From: Pseudooceanicola sp.
GTDB lineage: Bacteria > Pseudomonadota > Alphaproteobacteria > Rhodobacterales > Rhodobacteraceae
Length of the DNA: 64,000 nucleotides
NCBI RefSeq assembly: GCF_041987405.1
Contig: NZ_JBHIWR010000005.1
Span: forward strand, 150,258 to 214,257
Direction of reading: 5' to 3'
The position numbers were made by a program, and so were the translations under genes. Under the pieces are notes generated by a model that was not told the origin of the DNA, did no database searches, and was given only the letters and a program-made list of their open reading frames with translations. How positions within the stretch are numbered: position 1 is the stretch's first letter; every line of letters begins with the position of its first letter. This document shows, one piece after another, positions 1 through 60,202 of this stretch.

Positions 1-303
1 GTTCCGCTTGATCGCCGGGGGTGTGATCGTATTGTGGTAGCCCTGCCCGATCAGGCTGGTCAGGACTTTGTTCTTCTCCGCCGTCTCCCGCATCTTCTGC
101 AGCAGTTCGGATTCCGACAGGGGCGCCCCGAAATCCAGCGGTTCGGCCTGGCGGATCGCCTTGGGGACCGTCTGGTCGATCAGCTGATCGAGGGATGTGA
201 CGCCGATGGTCGCCAGCATCTCCTCCATCTCGGCCGGAGAGGGGCCGATGTGGCGGCGGTTGGCGAAGTCATAGGCGTCGTAGTCGGTCGGGGTGAAGGT
301 CAT
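1..303 (-). CDS. gcvP: Glycine dehydrogenase (glycine cleavage P protein), N-terminal part; runs off window start
   Basis: Manual translation from ATG at 303: [30 protein letters not shown]...[19 protein letters not shown], typical GcvP N-terminus; purine-rich RBS upstream; follows gcvT-gcvH. Confidence 0.93.
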
Positions 304-410
304 GTGGGGTCCTTCCGGTCAGGCATCGGGGCGGAGCGGTGGCGGGGCGGTGGCATACTCGGGCGCGGCCCGAGGGCCTGTCTGTCCCGCCCCGGTGGTC
401 GACCCGTCTT

Positions 411-434
411 CCCCGGGGTTGATACGGGGATGAC
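411..434. repeat. Degenerate half-copy of the GTCATCC-ended palindromic repeat family
   Basis: CCCCGGGGTTGATACGGGGATGAC in gcvH-gcvP spacer resembles the right arm of the 52454-52533 element. Confidence 0.4.
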
Positions 435-471
435 GCGGGGCCGGGCGGCAGAAGCGGAGACAGGCGCCCGT

Positions 472-831
472 TCAGGAGATCAGGTCGTTGTATTCCGCCT
501 CGGAGAGGTAGTCGTCCATCTGCGAGGGATCGGCGGGCTTGATCTTGAAGAACCAGGCGTCACCCATGGGGTCCTCGTTGATCTTGCCGGGGTCGTCCAC
601 CAGGGCTTCGTTCACCTCGGTGATCTCGCCATCCAGCGGGGCCAGGATGTCGGAGGCAGCCTTGACGCTCTCGATTACCACGCATTCGTCGTCCTTGGAC
701 ACTTCGGTCCCGGCCTCGGGCAGCTCGACAAAGACGATGTCGCCCAGTTGTTCGGCGGCGTGTTCTGTGATGCCGACGACGATCTCATCGCCTTCGGGGC
801 GCAGCCATTCGTGTTCTTCGGTGAATTTCAT
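472..831 (-). CDS. gcvH: Glycine cleavage system H protein
   Basis: [27 protein letters not shown], lipoyl-Lys motif IESVKAASD. Confidence 0.97.
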
Positions 832-848
832 GTGGTCCTCGTCAGCTC

Positions 849-1961
849 TCAGCGTTTGAAATTGGCAGGGGTGAAGGGCAGCGGGGCGACCTCTACGGGC
901 GCGCGTTTGCCGCGCAGTTCGGCGGATATGATGGTCCCAGGCGCGGCCATGTCAATCGGGACATACCCCATGGAGACAGGCGCCTGCACGGTCGGGCCGA
1001 AAGCGCCGGAGGTGATGGTGCCGATCTGGTAGGTCACCTCGTCGGAGGCGAATAGCGGGACCCCCTCCCGCATCGGGGCGCGGCCCTGCGGCGCAAGGCC
1101 GACACGCTTGCGGGGCGCGCCCTCGGCCAGTTCGCGCAGGATACGGTCGGCGCCAGGGAAGCCCCCTTCGCGGTCACCGCCGGTGCGGCGGACCTTCTGG
1201 ATGGCCCATTGCAGCCCGGCCTCGACCGGCGAGGTCGTGGTGTCGATGTCGTGGCCATAGAGGCAGAGCCCGGCTTCCAGCCGCAGGCTGTCGCGCGCGC
1301 CGAGGCCGATCGGCAGGGTGTCCTCGTGATCCAGCAGGGCGCGGGCGAGCGTGTCGGCGGCGCCTTCAGGGACGGAGATTTCATAGCCATCCTCGCCGGT
1401 GTAGCCGGAACGGGAGACCCAGCATTCCGCCCCGCAGAGAGTGACGGTGCGGACGTCCATGAATTTCATGTCGGCGACTTCGGGGGAAAGCGTCGCCAGC
1501 ACGGCCTCGGCTTTCGGCCCCTGCAGGGCGAGCAGGCAGCGGTCGGTGATTTCTTCCACCTCCACGCCCGTCAGGTTGGCGCGCATATGGGCAAGGTCCG
1601 CGGTCTTGCAGGCGGCATTGACAACGACAAAGAGGTGGTCGCCACGGTTGGCGAACATCAGGTCATCGAGGATGCCGCCCTCGTCATTCGTAAAGACCCC
1701 GTAGCGCTGGCGACCTTCCTTGAGGCCCAGCACATCGACCGGCACCAGCGCCTCGAAGGCGCGGGCCACATCGTCGCCGCGCAGGATCACCTGGCCCATA
1801 TGGGAGACATCGAAAAGACCGGCAGCGGCGCGGGTGTGGAGGTGTTCCTTCATCACCCCGGCGGCATATTGCACGGGCATCTCGTACCCGGCGAAGGGCA
1901 CCATCTTGGCGCCCAGTTCCACGTGAAGATCATGCAGCGGCAGGCTGTGCAGGTCGTTCAT
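849..1961 (-). CDS. gcvT: Glycine cleavage system T protein (aminomethyltransferase)
   Basis: [40 protein letters not shown] motifs. Confidence 0.97.
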
Positions 1962-2021: not shown

Positions 2022-2175
2022 CCCCCTCTGTCCTTGCGCCTGAGATCGCTATCCCTTCGGCGGGCGCCTTTCGCGCCACTCTCCAGAGTTCGTCAACGGC
2101 AGGTCCCTTGGGCCTGAGAGTTTCCGGGGCGGTTGCTCCTTCGGCACCGGTGGATGACCGGTTCTCCCTGTCCGT
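2022..2175 (-). ncRNA. Tandem glycine riboswitch
   Basis: Minus strand has two aptamers, GGACAGGGAGA...GCCGAAGGAGCAACCGCCCCGGAAACTCTCAGGC...GGACC (~2098-2173) and CTCTGGAGAG...CGCCGAAGGGA...ATCTCAGGCGCAAGGACAGAGGG (~2024-2088), directly upstream of gcvT. Confidence 0.95.
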
Positions 2176-2214
2176 GGGGTCTGGTTAGCGCGGCGGCGCG
2201 GCCCGCGCAAGGGG

Positions 2215-2746: not shown

Positions 2747-2769
2747 AAGATGTGACTTGCATGCATCAT
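2747..2769. promoter_or_regulatory. Putative NsrR-type operator
   Basis: AAGATGTGACTTGCATGCATCAT = GATGTGA-N5-ATGCATC, compared with the published NsrR consensus gATGyAT-N5-ATrCATc; lies between the divergent Rrf2 and GGCT genes. Confidence 0.55.
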
Positions 2770-2792
2770 CAGGGATCGCGGAAAACGCGTAT

Positions 2793-3395
2793 ATGACATG
2801 GATCAAACAGGAGCCGGAATTGCCCCACGACCCTTTTTTCTTTGGATATGGCAGCCTCGTGAACACCGCGACCCATGTTTATGACCGCCATCACCGGGCG
2901 CGTCTGGACGGCTGGCGGCGGGTCTGGCGGCATACGCCGTTCCGGGAAATGGCGTTCCTGACGGCGGAGCCTTTCGAGGGCAGCTATATCGACGGGCTGA
3001 TCGCCGCCGTGCCCGGGGCAGACTGGGCGGCGCTGGACCTGCGCGAGACCGGCTATGACCGGGTGCCGCTGGACCGCGGGATCAGCCATGAGGCCGTGCA
3101 GGCGGGCGAGATCGCGGTCTATCATATCCCGGAGGGCAAACATGGCCCCGCCGACGGGGACCGGCCCATCCTGATGAGTTATCTCGACGTGGTGGTGCAG
3201 GGCTATCTGCAGGTCTTCGGCGCGGAGGGCGGGCAGCATTTCTTTGACACGACCGCCGGATGGGACGGGCCGATCCTGAACGACCGGGCCCAACCGCTCT
3301 ACCCCCGCGCGCAGTTGCTGCGGGAGGAGGAGACGAGCTTTGTCGACCGGGCGCTGGCGAAGATGGGCGCGAGGATTGTGGAGGCGGAGGGTTAG
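2793..3395 (+). CDS. Gamma-glutamylcyclotransferase family protein (ChaC/GGCT-like); start uncertain
   Basis: FFFGYGSLVN motif, ARLDGWRRVW, LDLRETGY (catalytic Glu region). Confidence 0.8.
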   Translation: MTWIKQEPELPHDPFFFGYGSLVNTATHVYDRHHRARLDGWRRVWRHTPFREMAFLTAEPFEGSYIDGLIAAVPGADWAALDLRETGYDRVPLDRGISHEAVQAGEIAVYHIPEGKHGPADGDRPILMSYLDVVVQGYLQVFGAEGGQHFFDTTAGWDGPILNDRAQPLYPRAQLLREEETSFVDRALAKMGARIVEAEG

Positions 3396-3444: not shown

Positions 3445-3542
3445 AGGGCTGCGCCGACCCGCGGGGTGGCGCAATTGCGCCGCCCCAGGGGGGCGGGTCG
3501 GCGCAGCCCGGCGTTGCCGCCGGGCGGGACATTTGATCAAAG
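3445..3542. repeat. Multi-hairpin palindromic element, copy 1 (intergenic)
   Basis: 17-bp stem GGGCTGCGCCGACCCGC/GCGGGTCGGCGCAGCCC enclosing palindrome GGCGCAATTGCGCC, then CCCGGCG-TTGC-CGCCGGG; near-identical to 54430-54526. Confidence 0.9.
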
Positions 3543-3643: not shown

Positions 3644-4513
3644 TCAAAACCACTGCCCCGGCTCCATCAGCCCCAGCTTCAGCAACTGACTGGAGGTCCA
3701 GTCGAAGGGGGCGGAGTTGTGCCAGCGGAAGGTGTCGATCTCGTAGGTTGATCCCGGGTTCCGCTTCAGCGCCTTGGCCGCCCGGAAGGAGCAGACCGTC
3801 GCCGTCAGGTTGTTGTGCCATTTGCAGGCGTAGGTGTTGTACTCTTCGTCGTTGAAGGTGAAATCCGGGTTCATCCGCAGCCCCTGACGGGCGCGGAAGA
3901 GGGAAATCCGGTCGATGCGGCGGCGATCCGGGGGCACGTGTTCCTCGAACCGCCATTTCAGCCCGCCGTAGAAATCCAGCTGCCGTTCCTTGGGGTACCC
4001 GTGGTTGCCCGGGTCCTTGCGGGCGAGCGCGTAGTAGCCGGACTTGTCCAGCCAGGCGTCGTCCAGTGCCACCGCATTCGGCGCTTGGTCGAGATCGCCG
4101 GCGTAGAGGTCGACGACATAGGTCAGCATGGCGTCGCGCCGCTCTTCGCCGTGGAAGGTCAGCATTTCGCCAACCGTGCGGTGTTCGCAGAAGGGATGCA
4201 GCAGGTATTCGGCGTTGTAGCAGTAGTAGAGCCAGGCGCCGACGGCGATATTGGCGGCGCGGGTCACCGCCTCTTCGATCCGGTCGCCGCGGTTGAGGTC
4301 GTAGTCCACGCGGGTGGTCCAGGGCTGGACGTCGCGGGCGATGCGAAAACTCGGCGGGGCCAGCAGGATGACGGATTTGAACCCGGCCTTGTGGTGGTGG
4401 CGCAGGGTGCTGTCGATCTCCACCTCGTCCTCGGCAAAGATCATCGCCGAGGGGCCCTTGGTGAACTCTGGCGGCCGGGCGTTCAGAAACGCGTCGAGGC
4501 TATTGAACTGCAT
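3644..4513 (-). CDS. Conserved hypothetical protein, possibly glycosyltransferase family 2-like fold
   Basis: 289-aa ORF, best reading of the interval, divergent from miaB; [14 protein letters not shown] and [11 protein letters not shown] segments recall GT2-like proteins of Rhodobacteraceae (recollection, not searched). Confidence 0.6.
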
Positions 4514-13606: not shown

Positions 13607-13657
13607 CTGCTGCTCCAACGGCTTCCTGACGGAGCGGTCTAACACCTATCGGAGCAC
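13607..13657 (+). ncRNA. SAM-SAH riboswitch
   Basis: CTGCTCCAACGGCTTCCTGACGGAGC...ACCTATCGGAGCA contains the CAACGGCUUCCUGRCG core of this Rhodobacterales class and overlaps the metK RBS. Confidence 0.85.
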
Positions 13658-37624: not shown

Positions 37625-37701
37625 TGGTGACCCCGACAGGATTCGAACCTGTAACCTGCCCCTTAGGAGGGGGCTGCTCTATCCAGTTGAGCCACGGGGC
37701 C
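37625..37701 (-). tRNA. tRNA-Arg (anticodon CCT), CCA encoded
   Basis: Minus strand GGCCCCGTGGCTCAACTGGATAGAGCAGCCCCCTCCTAAGGGGCAGGTTACAGGTTCGAATCCTGTCGGGGTCACCA folds as a 77-nt cloverleaf. Confidence 0.97.
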
Positions 37702-47327: not shown

Positions 47328-47384
47328 TCCGGCAGCGGGACACCCCTCCCCAACGAGGGGCGTATGACTGGAAGGTTACTACCA
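47328..47384 (+). ncRNA. Probable serC leader RNA element
   Basis: Nested stems TCCGG/CTGGA and ACACCCCT/AGGGGCGT immediately before the serC ATG; a serC 5' element is known in alphaproteobacteria, but no covariance match was run. Confidence 0.5.
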
Positions 47385-52571: not shown

Positions 52572-54767
52572 TTACTCCAGCACAACCTCCACCCGCGCGG
52601 ACCGCCCCGCCCCGTCGATCACCGCGATCTCGGTGAACCCCCGCCCGAGACCCTGCAACAGCAGCTCCCGTCCACGCGCGCCGGTCTGCATCGGGCGACC
52701 GTTGACGAGCCATGTGAACGGCGCCACCCCGTCGCGGACCCGCACCGGCACCACGCCGGCCGCGGCCAGCACCGCGCCATCGGGCGGGAAGGCGACCTGG
52801 GGCAGGTCTCGGTCTTCCACCACGCCGCGCGGACGGAAGCGTTTCAGCGGTTCCGGCAGGAGGGTCGCACCGACCAGCAGGGTTTCCGGGGGCGGCGGCG
52901 GCGGTGTCTCCAGCGTGGGCTTCAGGCGACCGAAGGCCTCGAAAAGGATCGGCGCGGCGAGGTCCCCGCCGAAGGCGCCGGGCACGGGCGTCCCGTCCGG
53001 GCGGCCCATCCAGACGCCGATCACATGCGCCCCGTCATAGCCGATGGCCCAGGCATCGCGGTGGCCGTAGCTGGTGCCGGTCTTGTAGGCCAGCCGGTTG
53101 GCGGGCGCGCCGGGCGGCGGGGCGAGACCGGCGAGGATATGTCCGACCTGCCAGGCCGAGGCGCGGGAGATCAGGCGCGGCGCGTCCACCTCCGCCACCG
53201 CGCGCCAGTGCAGGGGCCGGGTCACACCGCCATTGGCGAGGCTGGCATACAGCTGCGTCAGATCGGTGAGGGTCAGCCCCACCCCGCCCAGGGCCACGGC
53301 GAGGCCGGGCTTTCCGGTAAGGTCCGGGCGCGTGCCGGCGCGGCGCAGCGCAGCCATGAGGTTTTGCGGGCCAAGTGCTTCGGTCAGTTGCACGGCGGGC
53401 AGGTTGAGCGACAGGCGCAGGGCGTCGGCGATGCGGACCTCGCCCCGGAATTCGCCATCGAAGTTCTGCGGCGCGTAGCCGTCGAACTCCATCGGGCGGT
53501 CGGCGATCAGGGTTTCGGGATGGGCCAGACCCTGATCGAAGGCGAGGCCGTAGATCAGCGGCTTCAGGGTCGAGCCGGGCGAGCGCAGGGCTTGGGTCAT
53601 GTCGACAAAGCCCTGCCCCCGGTCGGTCAGCCCGGCAGAGCCGACGGAGGCCAGGATCTCTCCGTTACGGTGATCGGCCACAAGGATCGCGATGGATAGC
53701 CGGTCAGAGCGATTGCGCAGGCTGCGGGTGGCGAGGTCTTCGAGGCTGGCTTGCAGGGTGGCGTCGAGGGTCAGGGTCTGGAGCGGCGCATCGGGGGCTT
53801 CGGACAGTGCGCGGTCGGTCAGATGCGGGGCCAGCGCGGGGAACGGGCGGCGCGCACGGGGGGCGGTGTCTGTCATGGCGGCCCGGGCTTCGGCGGGAGT
53901 CAGGATATTTTCGGTGACCATACGCGCCAGGACGCGGTCGCGTGCAGCGGCGGCCTGCAGCGGGTGACGGTCGGGACGCCGGGCCTCGGGCGATTGCGGC
54001 AGGGCGACCAGCAGCGCGGCCTCGGCCGGGGTCAGGCGTTTCGGTTCCTTGCCGAAATAGGCGAGGGTCGCGGCGCGGATGCCTTCCAGGTTGCCGCCCA
54101 TGGGGGCGAGGTGGAGGTAGAGGGTCAGGATCTCCGCCTTGGTCATCCGCCGTTCGAGGGCGAGGGCCAGGCGGATCTGGCGCAGTTTGCCGGACCAGCT
54201 GCCGGTGCCGCTGTCCTCCAGCAGGCGGGCAGTCTGCATCGTCAGGGTAGAGCCACCGGAGACGATGCGCCCGGCCCAGAGCGACTGCCAGGCGGCACGG
54301 GCCATGGCGTAGGGATCGACGCCGGGGTGGGTCAGAAAGCGGCGGTCCTCGTAGGCCATGAGCATGGCGAGGTAGAGGGGGTCGACGCCCTTTGACGTGA
54401 TCGGAGCAGGTTGATTGCGGTTGTCGTCAAGGGCTGCGCCGTCCCGCGGGGTGGCGCATATGCGCCGCCCCAGGGGGGCGGGACGGCGCAGCCCGGCCTG
54501 CGGCCGGGCGGAACACTCTATCAAAGGTGCACCAAGAACTTTTCCTGGCCGGAGGTTTGCCATCGAACCCGCCCCGACCCGCAACCGCCAGCGTCCATCC
54601 GCCACCGTATAGACACGCAGCAGATCGCCGTCCCGATCGCGCACCTCGGCTGAGGTATCCAACAGAAGCGGCGGCAGGTCCGTCCGGTCGATCCACAGAT
54701 CGACCCGGTCCCGCGTCAGCGCCCCGGCCCAAAGGACCAGGACAAGGGCCAGCAGCGCCCGTGTCAT
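52572..54767 (-). CDS. pbpC: Penicillin-binding protein 1C with an apparent in-frame ~59-aa insertion
   Basis: ATGA overlap with the A2M stop; YEDRRFLTHPGVD, SGGSTLTMQTARLL transglycosylase motifs; SPGSTLKP, YKTGTS transpeptidase motifs; C-terminal BiPBP region. Confidence 0.93.
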   Translation of the reverse strand: MTRALLALVLVLWAGALTRDRVDLWIDRTDLPPLLLDTSAEVRDRDGDLLRVYTVADGRWRLRVGAGSMANLRPGKVLGAPLIECSARPQAGLRRPAPLGRRICATPRDGAALDDNRNQPAPITSKGVDPLYLAMLMAYEDRRFLTHPGVDPYAMARAAWQSLWAGRIVSGGSTLTMQTARLLEDSGTGSWSGKLRQIRLALALERRMTKAEILTLYLHLAPMGGNLEGIRAATLAYFGKEPKRLTPAEAALLVALPQSPEARRPDRHPLQAAAARDRVLARMVTENILTPAEARAAMTDTAPRARRPFPALAPHLTDRALSEAPDAPLQTLTLDATLQASLEDLATRSLRNRSDRLSIAILVADHRNGEILASVGSAGLTDRGQGFVDMTQALRSPGSTLKPLIYGLAFDQGLAHPETLIADRPMEFDGYAPQNFDGEFRGEVRIADALRLSLNLPAVQLTEALGPQNLMAALRRAGTRPDLTGKPGLAVALGGVGLTLTDLTQLYASLANGGVTRPLHWRAVAEVDAPRLISRASAWQVGHILAGLAPPPGAPANRLAYKTGTSYGHRDAWAIGYDGAHVIGVWMGRPDGTPVPGAFGGDLAAPILFEAFGRLKPTLETPPPPPPETLLVGATLLPEPLKRFRPRGVVEDRDLPQVAFPPDGAVLAAAGVVPVRVRDGVAPFTWLVNGRPMQTGARGRELLLQGLGRGFTEIAVIDGAGRSARVEVVLE
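54430..54526. repeat. Multi-hairpin palindromic element, copy 2 (inside pbpC coding sequence)
   Basis: Aligns with 3445-3542, and substitutions in all three stems are compensatory. Confidence 0.9.
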
Positions 54768-57700
54768 TCGCTGATCGTCACGCGGCCCGCGTCGGTCCGG
54801 GCGCGGTAGCGCGGGCGGTACATGTCCTCGACCGTGGCGGCGGGGTGGTGGTAGCTGCCCGGCGTGATGGCGCGGACGATATAGGCCAGTTGGAAGGGCT
54901 CGTCGGACCGCCATTCGATTGCCGTCAGGAACCGGTCGGAGCGGAATTCGCTATGCTCGCCCTCCTGCGGTTTCAGCCAGTCGAGGGCGCGGATGTCGCC
55001 CGCGCGCAGCAGGTTGGGGTTGTCGATCTCGAACCCGGCCGGCAGCGGGTCGTCCACCATCAGCCGCGCGCCGGTCTTCTCGAAGGGCACCACGGTCAGG
55101 ACGGTGACCAGACGATCCCCCTGCGCCACCTGCGCGGGATCGACCCTGTCACCCTCGGTCGTGAAATATTCGCGTTTGATCGCATAGCCATAGCCCCCCG
55201 CCTCGACCGGGGTGGCGGTTACGCCGATGGTGGTCAGGGTGACATCTGTCTGCGCGCTCCCCTCGTTGCGGATCGCCATGGGGGTAAAGGCCTGCGCCGC
55301 GGTCGTGCGGACGAAGGGGCCGGTGACCGGCGCGCCGTTGAGCGAGAGGTTCGCTGCGACCGGATCGTCGATCAGGGCCTTGGCGGCCAGCAGGGTCCAG
55401 GCGCTTTCCTGCGTGGACATCGGGCCGTCGCGGCTGACCACCCGCGAGATCAGGGATTGCCGGTCAATGGCGGTGGAGCCGGATTCGACGGCGAGCGAAA
55501 GAACCCCGGCCGTGTCGCGCAGGTTGGTTCCATAGTCAGCGCGGAACACCCGCTCCTCCGGCGTTTCCTGGCGTTTGGCCAACATTTTGCCCGCGATGGC
55601 GAACATGGCATCGGCGCGGGTCTGGTCGCCATACATGGCAAGCGCCGCGCCAAGCTGGGCGGCGGCGAGCGGCGTGGCAAAATCTTCGCCCTTCACGTCG
55701 GAATAATAGCGCAGGTCGCCCATATTGGCCGCCCCTTCGCGGGCGAGGACCATGAGGGCATAGGCCACGTCCTCTCCGCCGCCGTTGGTGGAGGCGTCGA
55801 AATCCGGGGCATAGTTGACCCGGTTGCGCAGGTTGTCCACCGCCATCTGGAAGGCGAGCGGGTTGACCCCGTGCCCCTCGGCGCGGGCGCGCGACAGGAA
55901 GTCGGTCACATAGGCATCCAGCCAGAAATCACCTGACGCCGCGCGCCAGAGACCGAAGGCGCCATTGGTCGCCTGCCGGGTCAGGATACGGTCGACGGCC
56001 TGGCTGATCCGTTCCTCCACCTGGCCGGGCTGGGCGAGGCCCATGGCCTGGGCCACCGACGACAAGTAGAGCAGCGGCATGGCCTTTGACGTAATCTGCT
56101 CCGTGCAGCCGTAGGGATAGCGGCTGAGCGTGGCCAGCAGCGCGGGCGCATCGACCCGGGCGAGCGGCCCGGCGGAAACCACCGCCTCCCCCGTCCCGGC
56201 GCGGTACCCGGCGAAGACATTGCTGTCGAGGGTGAAGGTATCCCCTGCCGCAAGGGTGAAGCGGCGGGTTGTCGCGACCTCCGGATCGTTGACGCGGACC
56301 GGCATGGTCAGCGTCTTGGTCAGCTGTTTGCCCGCCGGTGTGGTCAGGGCCACGGTGATTGCGTGATCCCCGGTGTCGGTCGCAGTAAAGGGGATGCGAT
56401 AGCTCTGCTTGGCCTTCTCGCCGAGGTCGAAGCCGGAGGGCACAGCGCCGGTCAGGGTCACCCCATTGGCCGCCACGTCCAGCCCCATGCGTCCCGTCGG
56501 TCCGGTGGCATGGACGATCTCCAGCAACATGGATGATTGATCGCCCGGCTGCAGGAAGCGCGGGAGCGAGGCGGTGACGACCACCGGGTCGCGGACCAGC
56601 ACATCGGCCTCCGCCGCGCCGACGCCGGATTTGCTCCAGGCGACGGCCATCAGGCGGACGGTGCCGTTGAATTCGGGCATGTCGAAGGTGACCTGCGCCG
56701 TGCCGTCAGGGCCGATGGTCAGCGGGCCGGTGAAATAGGCGACGAGGTCCTCGGTCGGCGGGGGAGACTGCAACCCGGCCGAAGAGGCCGCGTCGCCGCC
56801 GGAGCGGACCCGGCCCATGGCGCCCTGGGTGCTGTCGATCAACCGGCCATAGAGGTCGCGGATATCCATTCCGAGCCGCTGCTGGCCGAAGTAATGGCCC
56901 TGCGGATCGGGCGTTTCAAAGCCGGTGAGGTTGAGGATACCGACGTCGACGGCGGCGACCGTGACATAGGCCTCTTCACCCGAAGTGATGCCATTGACCT
57001 GGACCGTGGCGGTCAGCGGTTCACGCGGGTCAGAGGTTTCAGATGTTTCGAAACTGACAGACAGCGCCTTCTCCGCCGGGTCTACCTTGGCATGGCTCAG
57101 CCCCATGGCGCGGGTCGGCATCTGGCCTGCGGGCGCATCCATCGGACGCATGACGGAGGCGGTGACATAAGCGCCGGTGCCCCAGTCCTCGGTCACGGGA
57201 AGGTCGATCAGGTTTTCGCCCTCGACGACCTCGACCGCCTTCATGTCGATCAGCCTGTTGGCGACGACCGTCACCAGCGCGGTCCCCGCATGACGCGGCA
57301 CGAGGCGAAGCTGCGCGGTGTCGCCCTGTCGGTACTCCTCGGCGTCCAGAGACAGCTCCAGCATATCCGGCGTGGTCGTGGCGTCGGCGGGGGCGTACCA
57401 GCCGGCGTGGAAATCCTCGCTCGCAGCAATGTAGGTGCCAGCGGAGCTCTCCACGACGATCTCGTAACGGCCCCAGTCCGTGGGGGCTTCGACTTCCACC
57501 GGGTCGGTGCCGAGCGTGACGGTGCCGGAGGCGACCTCGGCCCGCGTCGTGTAGGGCTCCCACTGCCAGTTACCGTATTGGCGATACCATTGGTAGCGGG
57601 TGGTGACGCGGTTGACGGTCCAGGTGACCAGCATCTCCTGCGGGGCGAGTGCGGCGTTCAGCGCGATGAGCGAGAAGCGGGCCGTTTCACCCTCCGGCAG

Positions 57701-60202
57701 GCCGCCGTCGAACAGGGGTTTGATGCCGATGGCGGGGCCATCGGGGCCGATGACGCGGGTGATCTGGCGTTCGACGGGGCGACCGGAGCCTTCCTTGACG
57801 CGGACCGTGGCGGTCAGGTCGAAGGGGGTGCCAAGCGTCTCCTCCGGGAACTCAGGGTCCATGGCCAGCGTCGCCTTGCCTGCCGCATCCGTCGTGCCGC
57901 CGACAAAGGCGGTGCGGGCATAGCCGCGCGCGTCGTGACGTCCGAAGACATAGCCAGGGAAGCTGGAAAGACGGCGCGCCTTGGACAGGCGGATCTCGCC
58001 CTCGACATCGAGATCGGCCCCGGGCGCGCCAAAGAGGTAATCGGCCTGCACATCCAGCAACGGCAGGTCTGCCACAGCCAGCGGACCCTCGGGCAGATCA
58101 AGCGTGACGTCGATGCGTTCGGGTAGGAAATCCTCCACCAGCACCTTGGTCGTGGCCAGGGCGGGCGCGTCGAGATCGGCCTTGATGTCGATCCGCCAGC
58201 TGCCGCGCGGTACGGTCTGGCCAAGCGGCATGGCAAAGACATGGCCCCCGGCCGCATCGCGGGTTGAGGTCATGCGGGCATATTCCACCCCGTCCGGGCG
58301 GGTCAGGATGGCGGTGACCGGCAGGCCGTCGATGGCCGTCGCGGTGCCATCGCGGGCGAGCGTGGTCAGGTGGATCGTCTCCCCCGCCCGGTAGGCGCCC
58401 CGGTCGGTGGTTAGGAAGACGTCGATCGGCGGCGCGGGTTCGCGCCCGGCAACGCCACGGTCGGACAGGTCAAAGGCCGGATCGGTCAGCGACAGGAAGG
58501 CCAGGTCATCACCCGCACGCGCCGTCACCATGGCCGGGGCCGATCCGCCGGTGCCGCGGGTCAGCCCGGCATCGAATGTCGCATAGCCCTGCGCATTAGT
58601 TGTCGTGGTGCCCAGAACGCGGTTTGCGCTGTTCAGCAGCGCGACCTCGACCCCGTCGCGCGGCTGCGCATCGCCCAGACCGCGCAGGAAGACATGCAGA
58701 CCGTCGCCGCCCTGCATCGTGGTCATGCCGATGTCGGTCAGGATGAACCATTGGGTGGCCGGATCGGCCTCCTCATCCCCGGGTACGGCAGCGTTCAGCG
58801 CGTAGGCCCCCGGCGCCATGCCCTGCAGCACCTCGCCCAGGGGCAGGCGCGTGGTGAGGGTGCGGTTCAGCTCCTGCCCGGTTTCGGCGGTGCCCTCCCA
58901 GACCTTCTCGGCGATGGTCGCGGCGAAGTGTCCTTGATCCCAATTGTAGATGCGTTGTCCGAAATAGCCCTCCTGGATCGACCGCAGCAGGTTCCGGTCG
59001 GTCACGCGGTAGAGGGTCAGGTCCAGTTCTGTCAGGTTGACCGTCTCGACCGGCAAGGCGGCATCCCCGGCGGCAGGCAGGACATAGGCCCGGCCCGGGA
59101 AGTTCACCATGGGCGAGCGGTCGCGGACATAGGCGCGGATCTCGGTGTCCTTGGCCAGTTGTTCGCCGCTTTCGGCGGGCAGGCCTTCGCGGAAGGTCAG
59201 GCTGTAGCGTTCGCCATGATTGATGCCGGTGACGCAGATCCGGTTGCCCGAGGCCTCCACCGCCATGCTGCGATCGGGGAGTTTGACGTAATCGGCATAG
59301 GTCACCCCGCTGCGGGCGAGAGGTTCGTTGAATTCGGCGCAGATGCGCGGATCGGCAAGGTCGCTCTCCACCCGATGTTCGGAAATGCGTAAGCCATATT
59401 TGGCAATCGCATCCTCCAGCTTGGCGGTGATTTCCTCTCGCGGTTGCAACCGTTCGGCCAGGCGCAGGGCCGGGATCGTGTCGCGCCCACGGTCGTTGGC
59501 CAACAGCGCATCGGCCAGGGTTGTCAGGGCGTTGACCCGGGCCGGATCACTCGCGGCGCGCAGGTAGGCATTGGTCGCGGCGGTCAGGGCGCGGCGGGTG
59601 TAGCTGCGGGTGTTTTTCTTGTCCTGGGGCGCGACGATCATGAGCAGCCGGGCATATTCCGCCCAGAGGTCCGAGGCATCGGAGGCCGCGACCGCCCCGC
59701 CCGTCCAGCGCATCGCATCCACCATGTTGCCAGACGCGCGGCGGTCGCGCGCCGTGTCGATCATGGACTGGAGAGTGAATTGGCCGCCGGGATGGATCCA
59801 GCCGATCTGCCGCGCCAGATCCCGCGCGTCGGACAGGGTCCCCGTGCCCAGAAATGCCAGATCATCGGCCCGGGTCGTTGCCAGTGCCTTGGCCTCGGCC
59901 GTCACGGCGATGACGCGGGCGGATTGTGCGCCCTGATAGTCGCTGGTGCCGGTCACGCCGGTCTTGGGGAAACAGGCGTTGGAGCGGGCGTTGAAGGTGA
60001 AGGCGGTGCAGGCATCGTCGCTTTCACAGGCGGTGCGACAGGCCTCAAAGGTCGTGTCGAAAAGCTGGGCCAGATCCTGCCCCGCGAAATCCTGATCCAA
60101 GGTCACGACAATCCGCTTGTCCGGAATGGGCGGTGTCTGGGCCGCGACGCCGGTGGCGATCAGGGCGAAAACGGCGGCAAGCGTGGCGATGAAACGGGTC
60201 AT
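54764..60202 (-). CDS. Bacterial alpha-2-macroglobulin (YfhM-like) with N-terminal PAN/apple-like domain
   Basis: Signal peptide MTRFIATLAAVFALIATGVAAQ; CRTAC..C..F....C PAN pattern; TTDRGAYRAGE; thioester YPYGCTEQ; ATVEDMYRP; adjacent to pbpC. Confidence 0.93.
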   Translation of the reverse strand: MTRFIATLAAVFALIATGVAAQTPPIPDKRIVVTLDQDFAGQDLAQLFDTTFEACRTACESDDACTAFTFNARSNACFPKTGVTGTSDYQGAQSARVIAVTAEAKALATTRADDLAFLGTGTLSDARDLARQIGWIHPGGQFTLQSMIDTARDRRASGNMVDAMRWTGGAVAASDASDLWAEYARLLMIVAPQDKKNTRSYTRRALTAATNAYLRAASDPARVNALTTLADALLANDRGRDTIPALRLAERLQPREEITAKLEDAIAKYGLRISEHRVESDLADPRICAEFNEPLARSGVTYADYVKLPDRSMAVEASGNRICVTGINHGERYSLTFREGLPAESGEQLAKDTEIRAYVRDRSPMVNFPGRAYVLPAAGDAALPVETVNLTELDLTLYRVTDRNLLRSIQEGYFGQRIYNWDQGHFAATIAEKVWEGTAETGQELNRTLTTRLPLGEVLQGMAPGAYALNAAVPGDEEADPATQWFILTDIGMTTMQGGDGLHVFLRGLGDAQPRDGVEVALLNSANRVLGTTTTNAQGYATFDAGLTRGTGGSAPAMVTARAGDDLAFLSLTDPAFDLSDRGVAGREPAPPIDVFLTTDRGAYRAGETIHLTTLARDGTATAIDGLPVTAILTRPDGVEYARMTSTRDAAGGHVFAMPLGQTVPRGSWRIDIKADLDAPALATTKVLVEDFLPERIDVTLDLPEGPLAVADLPLLDVQADYLFGAPGADLDVEGEIRLSKARRLSSFPGYVFGRHDARGYARTAFVGGTTDAAGKATLAMDPEFPEETLGTPFDLTATVRVKEGSGRPVERQITRVIGPDGPAIGIKPLFDGGLPEGETARFSLIALNAALAPQEMLVTWTVNRVTTRYQWYRQYGNWQWEPYTTRAEVASGTVTLGTDPVEVEAPTDWGRYEIVVESSAGTYIAASEDFHAGWYAPADATTTPDMLELSLDAEEYRQGDTAQLRLVPRHAGTALVTVVANRLIDMKAVEVVEGENLIDLPVTEDWGTGAYVTASVMRPMDAPAGQMPTRAMGLSHAKVDPAEKALSVSFETSETSDPREPLTATVQVNGITSGEEAYVTVAAVDVGILNLTGFETPDPQGHYFGQQRLGMDIRDLYGRLIDSTQGAMGRVRSGGDAASSAGLQSPPPTEDLVAYFTGPLTIGPDGTAQVTFDMPEFNGTVRLMAVAWSKSGVGAAEADVLVRDPVVVTASLPRFLQPGDQSSMLLEIVHATGPTGRMGLDVAANGVTLTGAVPSGFDLGEKAKQSYRIPFTATDTGDHAITVALTTPAGKQLTKTLTMPVRVNDPEVATTRRFTLAAGDTFTLDSNVFAGYRAGTGEAVVSAGPLARVDAPALLATLSRYPYGCTEQITSKAMPLLYLSSVAQAMGLAQPGQVEERISQAVDRILTRQATNGAFGLWRAASGDFWLDAYVTDFLSRARAEGHGVNPLAFQMAVDNLRNRVNYAPDFDASTNGGGEDVAYALMVLAREGAANMGDLRYYSDVKGEDFATPLAAAQLGAALAMYGDQTRADAMFAIAGKMLAKRQETPEERVFRADYGTNLRDTAGVLSLAVESGSTAIDRQSLISRVVSRDGPMSTQESAWTLLAAKALIDDPVAANLSLNGAPVTGPFVRTTAAQAFTPMAIRNEGSAQTDVTLTTIGVTATPVEAGGYGYAIKREYFTTEGDRVDPAQVAQGDRLVTVLTVVPFEKTGARLMVDDPLPAGFEIDNPNLLRAGDIRALDWLKPQEGEHSEFRSDRFLTAIEWRSDEPFQLAYIVRAITPGSYHHPAATVEDMYRPRYRARTDAGRVTISE

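Follow-up and report, generated by a model that had tools for sequence, protein, structure and literature searches.

An in-frame 59-codon insert with a REP/REPIN-like palindromic repeat in the pbpC gene of a Pseudooceanicola species

How can a palindromic repeat come to lie inside the gene of a cell-wall enzyme, next to a catalytic motif, without breaking the reading frame, and what does it do there? The question is raised by pbpC, the gene for penicillin-binding protein (PBP) 1C, in a 64,000-nucleotide stretch of a Pseudooceanicola sp. genome (contig NZ_JBHIWR010000005.1, positions 150,258 to 214,257), hereafter called the window. A first-pass annotation of this DNA had proposed the insertion of a mobile, coding-compatible palindrome resembling the Rickettsia palindromic elements (RPEs). 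The follow-up analysis supported the insertion itself and led to a different interpretation: a copy of a repeat resembling the repetitive extragenic palindromes (REPs) and REPINs, together with about 80 bp of single-copy DNA, probably entered a permissive linker of pbpC and persists as a neutral or slightly costly passenger loop. The gene and the insert are as follows.

52572..54767, minus strand: pbpC, class A PBP 1C with Transgly, Transpeptidase and BiPBP_C domains, 731 amino acids (aa).
54390..54566, minus strand: insert in pbpC, 177 bp or 59 codons, in frame, delimited from the open reading frame (ORF) and ortholog alignments.

The pbpC translation starts with MTRALL, and the 731-aa ORF runs through 54390-54566 without a stop codon or a frameshift, as the first-pass annotation had stated. 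The insert peptide, SMANLRPGKV...NQPAPITSK, corresponds exactly to codons S67-K125 of PbpC; its junctions may slide by a few nucleotides because the linker codons at the flanks vary. When 5.8 billion proteins were searched, the matches comprised the window protein and homologs of 652-690 aa; the 120 nearest PbpC homologs were taken for comparison. The nearest insert-free ortholog, P0002, has 672 aa, which is exactly 59 fewer than the window protein, and in 38 of the 40 best matches no residues were aligned opposite the window segment SMANL...ITSK. The spacing between the WR[L] and [Y]EDxxF motifs was 17 residues in 106 of the 120 homologs and 15-20 residues in 11 more; the window protein, with 76 residues (17 + 59), and Pseudooceanicola onchidii, with 65, stood apart. 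Excision of the insert would restore the usual distance (76 - 59 = 17), which had been expected in the first pass. The large insert was absent from 118 of the 120 nearest homologs, a count that includes P0085, which was unscorable for spacing and was treated as lacking the insert.

Support for the insert was checked on metagenome contigs. The insert sequence was found in at least 15 DNA metagenome runs, both junctions were covered at the depth of the flanks in at least four runs, and no contig skipping the insert was found among the runs examined. Two NCBI assemblies and one 3.7-kb Logan contig encode exactly this 731-aa protein. The pbpC insert is real and is fixed in the sampled population.

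The insert is composite, with a repeated core between two single-copy arms, and the core has a second copy elsewhere in the window:

54430..54527, plus strand (model strand, antisense to pbpC): repeat core, defined by a match to covariance model R1 at 54424-54531 (106.6 bits) and by contig depth.
54431..54494, plus strand: main nested hairpin, folding energy -76.9 kcal/mol, z -6.2, supported by covariation.
54496..54509, plus strand: second small hairpin, CCGGC-CUGC-GCCGG, with compensatory changes in 5 of 7 helix pairs across copies.
54390..54429, no strand: left arm, 40 bp, single-copy and AT-richer, with the depth of the flanks at >=80% likeness and a GC content at third codon positions (GC3) of 0.62.
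54528..54566, no strand: right arm, 39 bp, single-copy and AT-richer, with an in-frame GC3 of 0.41.
3445..3542, plus strand: intergenic copy A, 114.6 bits with R1, between the convergent ORFs 2757..3395 (plus strand) and 3644..4513 (minus strand).

The segment 54430-54527 aligns with 3445-3542 in the same orientation, giving an aligned core of about 98 bp. A 28-mer with one N had two matches in the 64 kb, both in the repeat copies (0.00 expected from shuffles). Contig depth was measured by placing metagenome contigs on a copy at >=90% and then >=80% likeness. The depth was 48-56x over pbpC and both insert arms and 800-1370x over 54429-54516, so that the relative depth over the pbpC core was 17-27x. 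In copy A, the repeated part spans 3443/5-3539, with a relative depth of about 30x in the first half and up to about 70x in the second, and its arms are also single-copy. The repeat is thus present in about 20-70 copies in the metagenome contigs, and its unit in the window organism is about 90-95 bp. The element reported in the first pass as shared between 54390-54566 and 3445-3542 is a genuine repeat, but only about 86-98 of the 177 bp belong to it, the flanking 40 and 39 bp being single-copy.

The main hairpin has an outer stem of 17 bp, then an AGGGGG bulge and an inner stem of 10 bp, which contains a fixed U.G pair and is capped by a 4-nt loop. The folding energies of both window copies range from -75 to -77 kcal/mol (z -5.3 to -6.7). 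The sequence GCGCCGACCCG/CGGGGTGGCGC is a 9/11 palindrome, and its inverted copy after the 4-nt loop results in a 27-bp nested stem. Each half of the main hairpin is a 22-nt imperfect palindrome, so the unit represents a REP-like sequence arranged as an inverted doublet. The palindrome does lie beside the transglycosylase motif, as had been noticed from the letters alone: the insert ends 14 residues upstream of the EDxxF glutamate.

Model R1 was built from 13 copies and recovers those of the exact-pattern scans (see below) at 61.9-125 bits. Among 21 aligned copies from several genera, 97.6% of the cells were paired, and seven pairs had changed on both sides. The covariation score was 0.195, compared to 0.084 in shuffles and 0.026-0.041 with the partners slid. 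One inner-stem pair was U.G in 20 of the 21 copies. One-sided changes on the R1 model strand gave G.U eight times and A.C twice, an excess that could be a weak hint of one strand mattering. No Rfam family matched the repeat at gathering or E-value thresholds (the best sub-threshold matches, with E of 0.6-8, were to unrelated families), and six-frame translations of the core, as a chimeric query against the protein database, gave no match. Terminator-like or promoter-like sites were not found on either strand of 54200-54800.

The arms have a different composition. Their in-frame GC3 values of 0.41 and 0.62, compared to 0.86 in the rest of pbpC, make them look like non-coding DNA. They had no similarity beyond chance to the arms of 11 other copies, save for a weak Leisingera match, and no donor was found in the metagenome contigs, plasmids, phages, or the P. 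onchidii insert described below. No direct repeat of at least 4 nt occurs at the junctions at period 177, where the variable linker could have erased a short target-site duplication. A TCGA pair (period 181) and a CGCCC pair (period 184) were considered as target duplications and rejected, as neither fits the 177-bp length difference. Terminal inverted repeats were missing from the pbpC copy: the left arm and the reverse complement of the right arm shared a 7-nt match, which is not above shuffles. The ends that could not be resolved by eye in the first pass are now placed (177 bp, codons 67-125), but no target duplication fits them. The mobility proposed for the element can only be inferred: with 64 kb of the genome covered, no target duplication, terminal inverted repeat or transposase was found for the window copies.

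The core has a GC content of about 78% and is open in a mean of 5.1 of six frames, compared to 3.7 for random 90-nt genomic windows. The open frames of the core follow from its GC content, and coding compatibility looks like a by-product. The complete 177-bp insert is open in one of six frames, which is the frame used by pbpC, and all its stop codons are located in the AT-richer arms. This single open frame indicates a selective filter on random insertions rather than design.

In-frame copies also occur in relatives. The cobN gene of Pseudooceanicola sp. MF1-13 contains a sense copy (L007:4817-4922, minus strand, 68.8 bits) that is in frame and accounts for about 33 extra residues relative to the nearest ortholog. 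A diverged sense copy (30.7 bits) is located at the same CobN loop in a Paracoccaceae metagenome-assembled genome (MAG) (L027:624-740, plus strand). A third CobN, P0127 (L028), has an unrecognizable insert at this loop, while the nearest CobN ortholog (L029) has none. A metagenome contig carries an antisense in-frame copy (L022:980-1088, plus strand) in a single ORF at 141..1325 on the minus strand, between an HTH_3 domain and a DUF815 ATPase; two genes may have been fused here by the element, or a naturally occurring linker may have received the insert. The in-frame copies thus come in three frame/orientation combinations: those of pbpC and L022 are both antisense but in different frames, and those of cobN have the sense orientation. 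Therefore no conserved element peptide exists. The further intragenic copies anticipated in the first pass were found in relatives, in cobN and in the HTH-DUF815 ORF, but about 90% of the inspected copies are extragenic. Together with the three combinations and the openness that comes with about 78% GC, this speaks against the element as an RPE-like, coding-compatible palindrome.

Exact-pattern scans yielded 13 genome loci, from a species-representative collection in which the window genome is not included, and seven metagenome loci. Copies were found in Pseudooceanicola sp. MF1-13, P. onchidii, Leisingera, a Marinovum MAG, and two further MAGs (one with seven copies), as well as in seven metagenome contigs, Leisingera and Pontibrevibacter plasmids, and three IMG/VR contigs. 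About 90% of the copies inspected were intergenic or intercistronic, about 4 of 35-40 were intragenic and in frame, and the orientation relative to neighboring genes was mixed. The plasmid copies L030:2501-2586 (Leisingera) and L031:2501-2580 (Pontibrevibacter) fill the rfbB-rfbD and betC-betB spacers, respectively, and are co-oriented with the operons. Copies of one MAG form a longer unit and are located at the following loci.

L009, L011, L013, L014, L015, L017, and L018: loci of MAG P01_D01_bin.133.

In these copies the core is accompanied by conserved terminal inverted arms of about 26 bp with TA on both sides, making up a unit of about 185 bp similar to a MITE (miniature inverted-repeat transposable element). 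No transposase was found between the paired inverted copies in L015 and L026, which enclose only housekeeping genes. Several variants of the repeat were observed: the inner hairpin is deleted in L012:1023-1212, L015:3330-3499 has an insertion of about 60 nt, and L018:52-176 also belongs to this set of deletion, nested, and truncated variants. Two copies on metagenome contigs, L020:1407-1512 and L021:913-1022, have a common left flank, and the contigs diverge right after the copy, marking a rearrangement breakpoint at the element.

The pbpC gene of P. onchidii (L001:10190-10350) contains a different in-frame insert of 48 aa (144 bp) at the site of the window insert. Its similarity to the window core is weak: the best pairwise alignment is in the opposite orientation (z 3.6-5.5), and neither covariance model R1 nor nhmmer gave a match. 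According to substitution counts, the insert-free P0002 is sister to the window pbpC and P. onchidii lies outside, which favors independent events or loss. The ratio of onchidii-like to P0002-like informative sites is 20:20 in the first 198 nt of pbpC and 38:84 downstream, and could be taken as a weak hint of mosaicism.

The AlphaFold model of PbpC, based on 56 homologs, had a mean predicted local distance difference test score (pLDDT) of 85.6, and the flanks of the insert were modeled confidently. Residues 67-123 had pLDDT below 50 and no secondary structure, so that the insert is predicted to be a disordered 59-residue loop. In the model it follows the N-terminal beta-hairpin (strands 40-43 and 49-53) and leads to the first transglycosylase helix (130-139), after which comes the invariant E140. 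The new peptide loop supposed in the first pass is thus predicted by the model, as a disordered segment ahead of transglycosylase helix 1. The model matches E. coli PBP1b structures, and the solved class A PBPs align starting just after the insert. Identity of the insert site with the UB2H insertion point of E. coli PBP1b was considered and dropped, since the site is about 15-20 residues downstream according to the sequence alignment and the PBP1b domain borders. An intein or a self-splicing intron was also rejected, by reasoning from the length of 59 residues, the lack of an Rfam intron match, and the predicted disorder. Another homolog, P0017, has an unrelated low-complexity insert of about 80 aa, GGTSTGGTSTGG...ANPYSANPYSAN, at residues 478-558 in the transpeptidase half of the protein.

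The transglycosylase and transpeptidase motifs EDRRF, GGSTLTMQ, STLK, SLN, and KTGTS are intact in the translation, and pbpC carries no other lesion. The dN/dS ratio of pbpC versus P0002 is 0.15. When P. onchidii served as outgroup, the window lineage was assigned 46 non-synonymous versus 91 synonymous substitutions (N/S 0.51), and the insert-free sister lineage 46 versus 85 (N/S 0.54). These counts give no sign of relaxed selection on pbpC. Transcripts of the pbpC locus were not found in the metatranscriptome contigs of the same study. Insert-derived tryptic peptides predicted from the translation are VLGAPLIECSARPQAGLR, ICATPR, DGAALDDNR, and NQPAPITSK.

The gene next to pbpC is its usual partner.

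54764..60202, minus strand: bacterial alpha-2-macroglobulin (A2M) gene, 1812 aa, identified by gene calls and Pfam families.

It is located upstream of pbpC, and its stop overlaps the pbpC start by 4 bp, in line with the partnership named in the first pass. PbpC has the domains PF00912, PF00905, and PF06832. The gene pair, the domain architecture, and all catalytic motifs are as in the PbpC-YfhM systems, from which the window protein differs by the extra 59-residue loop before transglycosylase helix 1. Within the A2M gene, a weak covariance-model match (16.4 bits, E 0.028) was observed at 58606-58697 on the minus strand. It is probably a chance match in GC-rich sequence because the A2M gene has the same length as its insert-free ortholog.

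These data are probably best explained by the entry of one REP/REPIN-like repeat copy, along with about 80 bp of single-copy, AT-richer DNA, into pbpC at a short variable linker. The route of entry would have left neither target duplication nor terminal inverted repeats, and could have involved the capture of flanking DNA or the renewal of an older insert. The insert would have persisted because its length is a multiple of three, the frame used is the only one among six without a stop, and extra residues are tolerated at the site. The outcome would be a normal class A PBP with a disordered 59-residue loop 14 residues before the catalytic glutamate. As for its effect, the insert would most likely be a passenger, neutral or of slight cost, and not an adaptation. 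With time, intragenic copies seem to lose the hairpin, to judge from the cobN copies and the P. onchidii insert. Three points weigh against this explanation. About 80 bp of the insert is not repeat, and simple transposition of a unit of about 95 bp cannot explain the whole. The second insert at the same site may reflect target preference or shared ancestry instead of a site that is permissive by chance. Finally, the intact ORF and the selection statistics are the grounds for supposing that mRNA and protein keep the insert.

Several other explanations were weighed against the passenger loop. An RPE-like palindrome adapted to land in genes, adding a defined peptide module, would agree with four in-frame copies in three genes among about 35-40 inspected and with CobN copies that lasted long enough to diverge. 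It is quite unlikely, since no peptide is conserved across the three frame/orientation combinations, about 90% of the copies are extragenic, GC content accounts for the open frames, and the hairpin is lost in intragenic copies (R1 scores of 68.8 and 30.7 bits in cobN, no match in the P. onchidii pbpC insert). Alternatively, the insert could be old, inherited from an ancestor of the window species and P. onchidii and lost from the insert-free relatives; the arms would then be its decayed remains, and the core would have been kept or renewed by gene conversion. Of the 120 homologs, just the two from Pseudooceanicola-clade species have this site occupied, the arms are single-copy and non-coding in look, and the site ratio of 20:20 in the first 198 nt versus 38:84 downstream points in the same direction. 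Such a history appears doubtful: it would need precise losses, given P0002 as sister to the window gene and P. onchidii outside; the best alignment of the P. onchidii insert to the core is in the opposite orientation (z 3.6-5.5), and neither the covariance model nor nhmmer matches it; and the arms are dissimilar to this insert. The hairpin in pbpC is still perfect (106.6 bits), suggesting that the core is young, and PbpC of E. coli is non-essential, so the gene might be a nascent pseudogene, inactivated by the insert or dispensable, with an ORF intact only from recency. We regard this as improbable, because the catalytic motifs are all intact without any further lesion, every run shows the insert as fixed, and the N/S of the window lineage equals that of the insert-free sister.

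A regulatory role is highly improbable. In this case the hairpin would act in RNA or DNA, perhaps as an RNase III or ribosome-pausing site or by giving rise to an antisense transcript in pbpC, tuning expression versus the upstream A2M gene. The conservation of structure by covariation across genera, the U.G pair fixed in 20 of 21 copies, the ratio of eight G.U to two A.C, and the co-oriented intercistronic copies in operons would fit it, but the model strand is antisense to the pbpC mRNA, the orientation to neighbors is mixed, and no terminator-like or promoter-like site was found. An assembly artefact, with a repeat collapsed or mis-joined inside pbpC, is effectively excluded: short-read contigs do break in the core, and the junction contigs overlap by 22 nt only, but the complete identical gene is present in two NCBI assemblies and the 3.7-kb Logan contig, both junctions occur in at least four runs at flank depth, and the repeat is shorter than a read. 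More far-reaching, and rather unlikely, is the possibility that the Roseobacter group has in this core a so far undescribed, structured nucleic-acid module which selection maintains, more than selfish DNA alone, and which repeatedly enters particular loop-coding sites by a targeted scar-free mechanism. Its maintenance would be suggested by the covariation, the fixed U.G pair, the fixed AGGGGG bulge, the cross-genus conservation, and the frequent intercistronic position, and its targeting by a single pbpC site that received two different inserts and a single cobN loop that received two or three. If so, protein loops in the Roseobacter group would be a regular sink and source for such modules.

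The repeat was compared with known families of small palindromic elements. REPs and their inverted doublets are mobilized by RAYT transposases (PMC3116915, PMC3337134, PMC3733652); the doublets, REPINs, persist long in lineages (PMC3116915, PMC3337134), and REP palindromes carry a GTAG or CGTC tag (PMC3733652). The window family resembles them in its GC-rich 22-nt imperfect palindrome, which is arranged as an inverted doublet and folds into a single long hairpin. It also has tens of copies per genome, mostly extragenic or intercistronic, and is conserved across related genera and devoid of terminal inverted repeats and target-site duplication. Unlike REPs, it has no GTAG/CGTC tag, showing instead a flank consensus RAGGGC in the aligned copies, and it has a conserved AGGGGG bulge and a covarying second hairpin. 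Moreover, Rhodobacterales are not among the hosts described in those papers, and one window copy is intragenic. The likeness was assessed on repeat architecture, copy number, and location, with 64 kb of the genome covered; a full REP/REPIN system would also include a cognate RAYT (Y1 transposase) gene, usually with REPs on both sides.

RPEs are palindromic repeats of about 100-150 bp, found in frame in conserved genes and predicted to encode a fold-compatible peptide (Ogata 2000, 2002, reviewed in PMC10969869); the peptide is conserved in a fixed frame, and the elements are frequently intragenic (reviewed in PMC10969869). The window repeat is likewise palindromic, lies in frame inside a conserved gene, and adds a peptide segment. 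In contrast to RPEs, its family occurs in three frame/orientation combinations with about 10% of the inspected copies intragenic, and its host is free-living and has a high GC content; the distinction was drawn from descriptions of RPEs. Bacterial MITEs with in-frame insertions include ERIC, Correia, and QMITE of Coxiella (PMC10969869, PMC5896051, PMC3184786). Like the window family, they comprise small and structured repeats, non-autonomous and for the most part intergenic, with some in-frame fusions with host ORFs. However, the window copies lack both terminal inverted repeats and target duplication, and inverted arms are present only in the copies of P01_D01_bin.133. The window family is conserved in the interior and variable at the ends, while MITEs show the opposite pattern.

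Rfam matches at the gathering threshold elsewhere in the window comprise a glycine riboswitch (2091-2179, minus strand), a SAM/SAH riboswitch (13607-13656, plus strand), a serC leader (47333-47384, plus strand), and a tRNA (37628-37701, minus strand).

Most documented cases of in-frame capture of small palindromic repeats come from obligate intracellular or pathogenic bacteria, among them Rickettsia and Coxiella. The pbpC case is a clean example in a free-living, high-GC marine alphaproteobacterium and in a well-understood enzyme, and it points to a permissive site for insertions in PbpC, namely the linker ahead of transglycosylase helix 1. The repeat represents an apparently undescribed REP/REPIN-like family in Rhodobacterales, for the annotation of which model R1 could be used. 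Short-read contigs break at its copies, and at least one rearrangement breakpoint coincides with a copy. The intact hairpin in pbpC, the decaying hairpins in cobN, and the unrecognizable insert of P. onchidii could be arranged in an age series, which suggests that such inserts turn into ordinary disordered loops.

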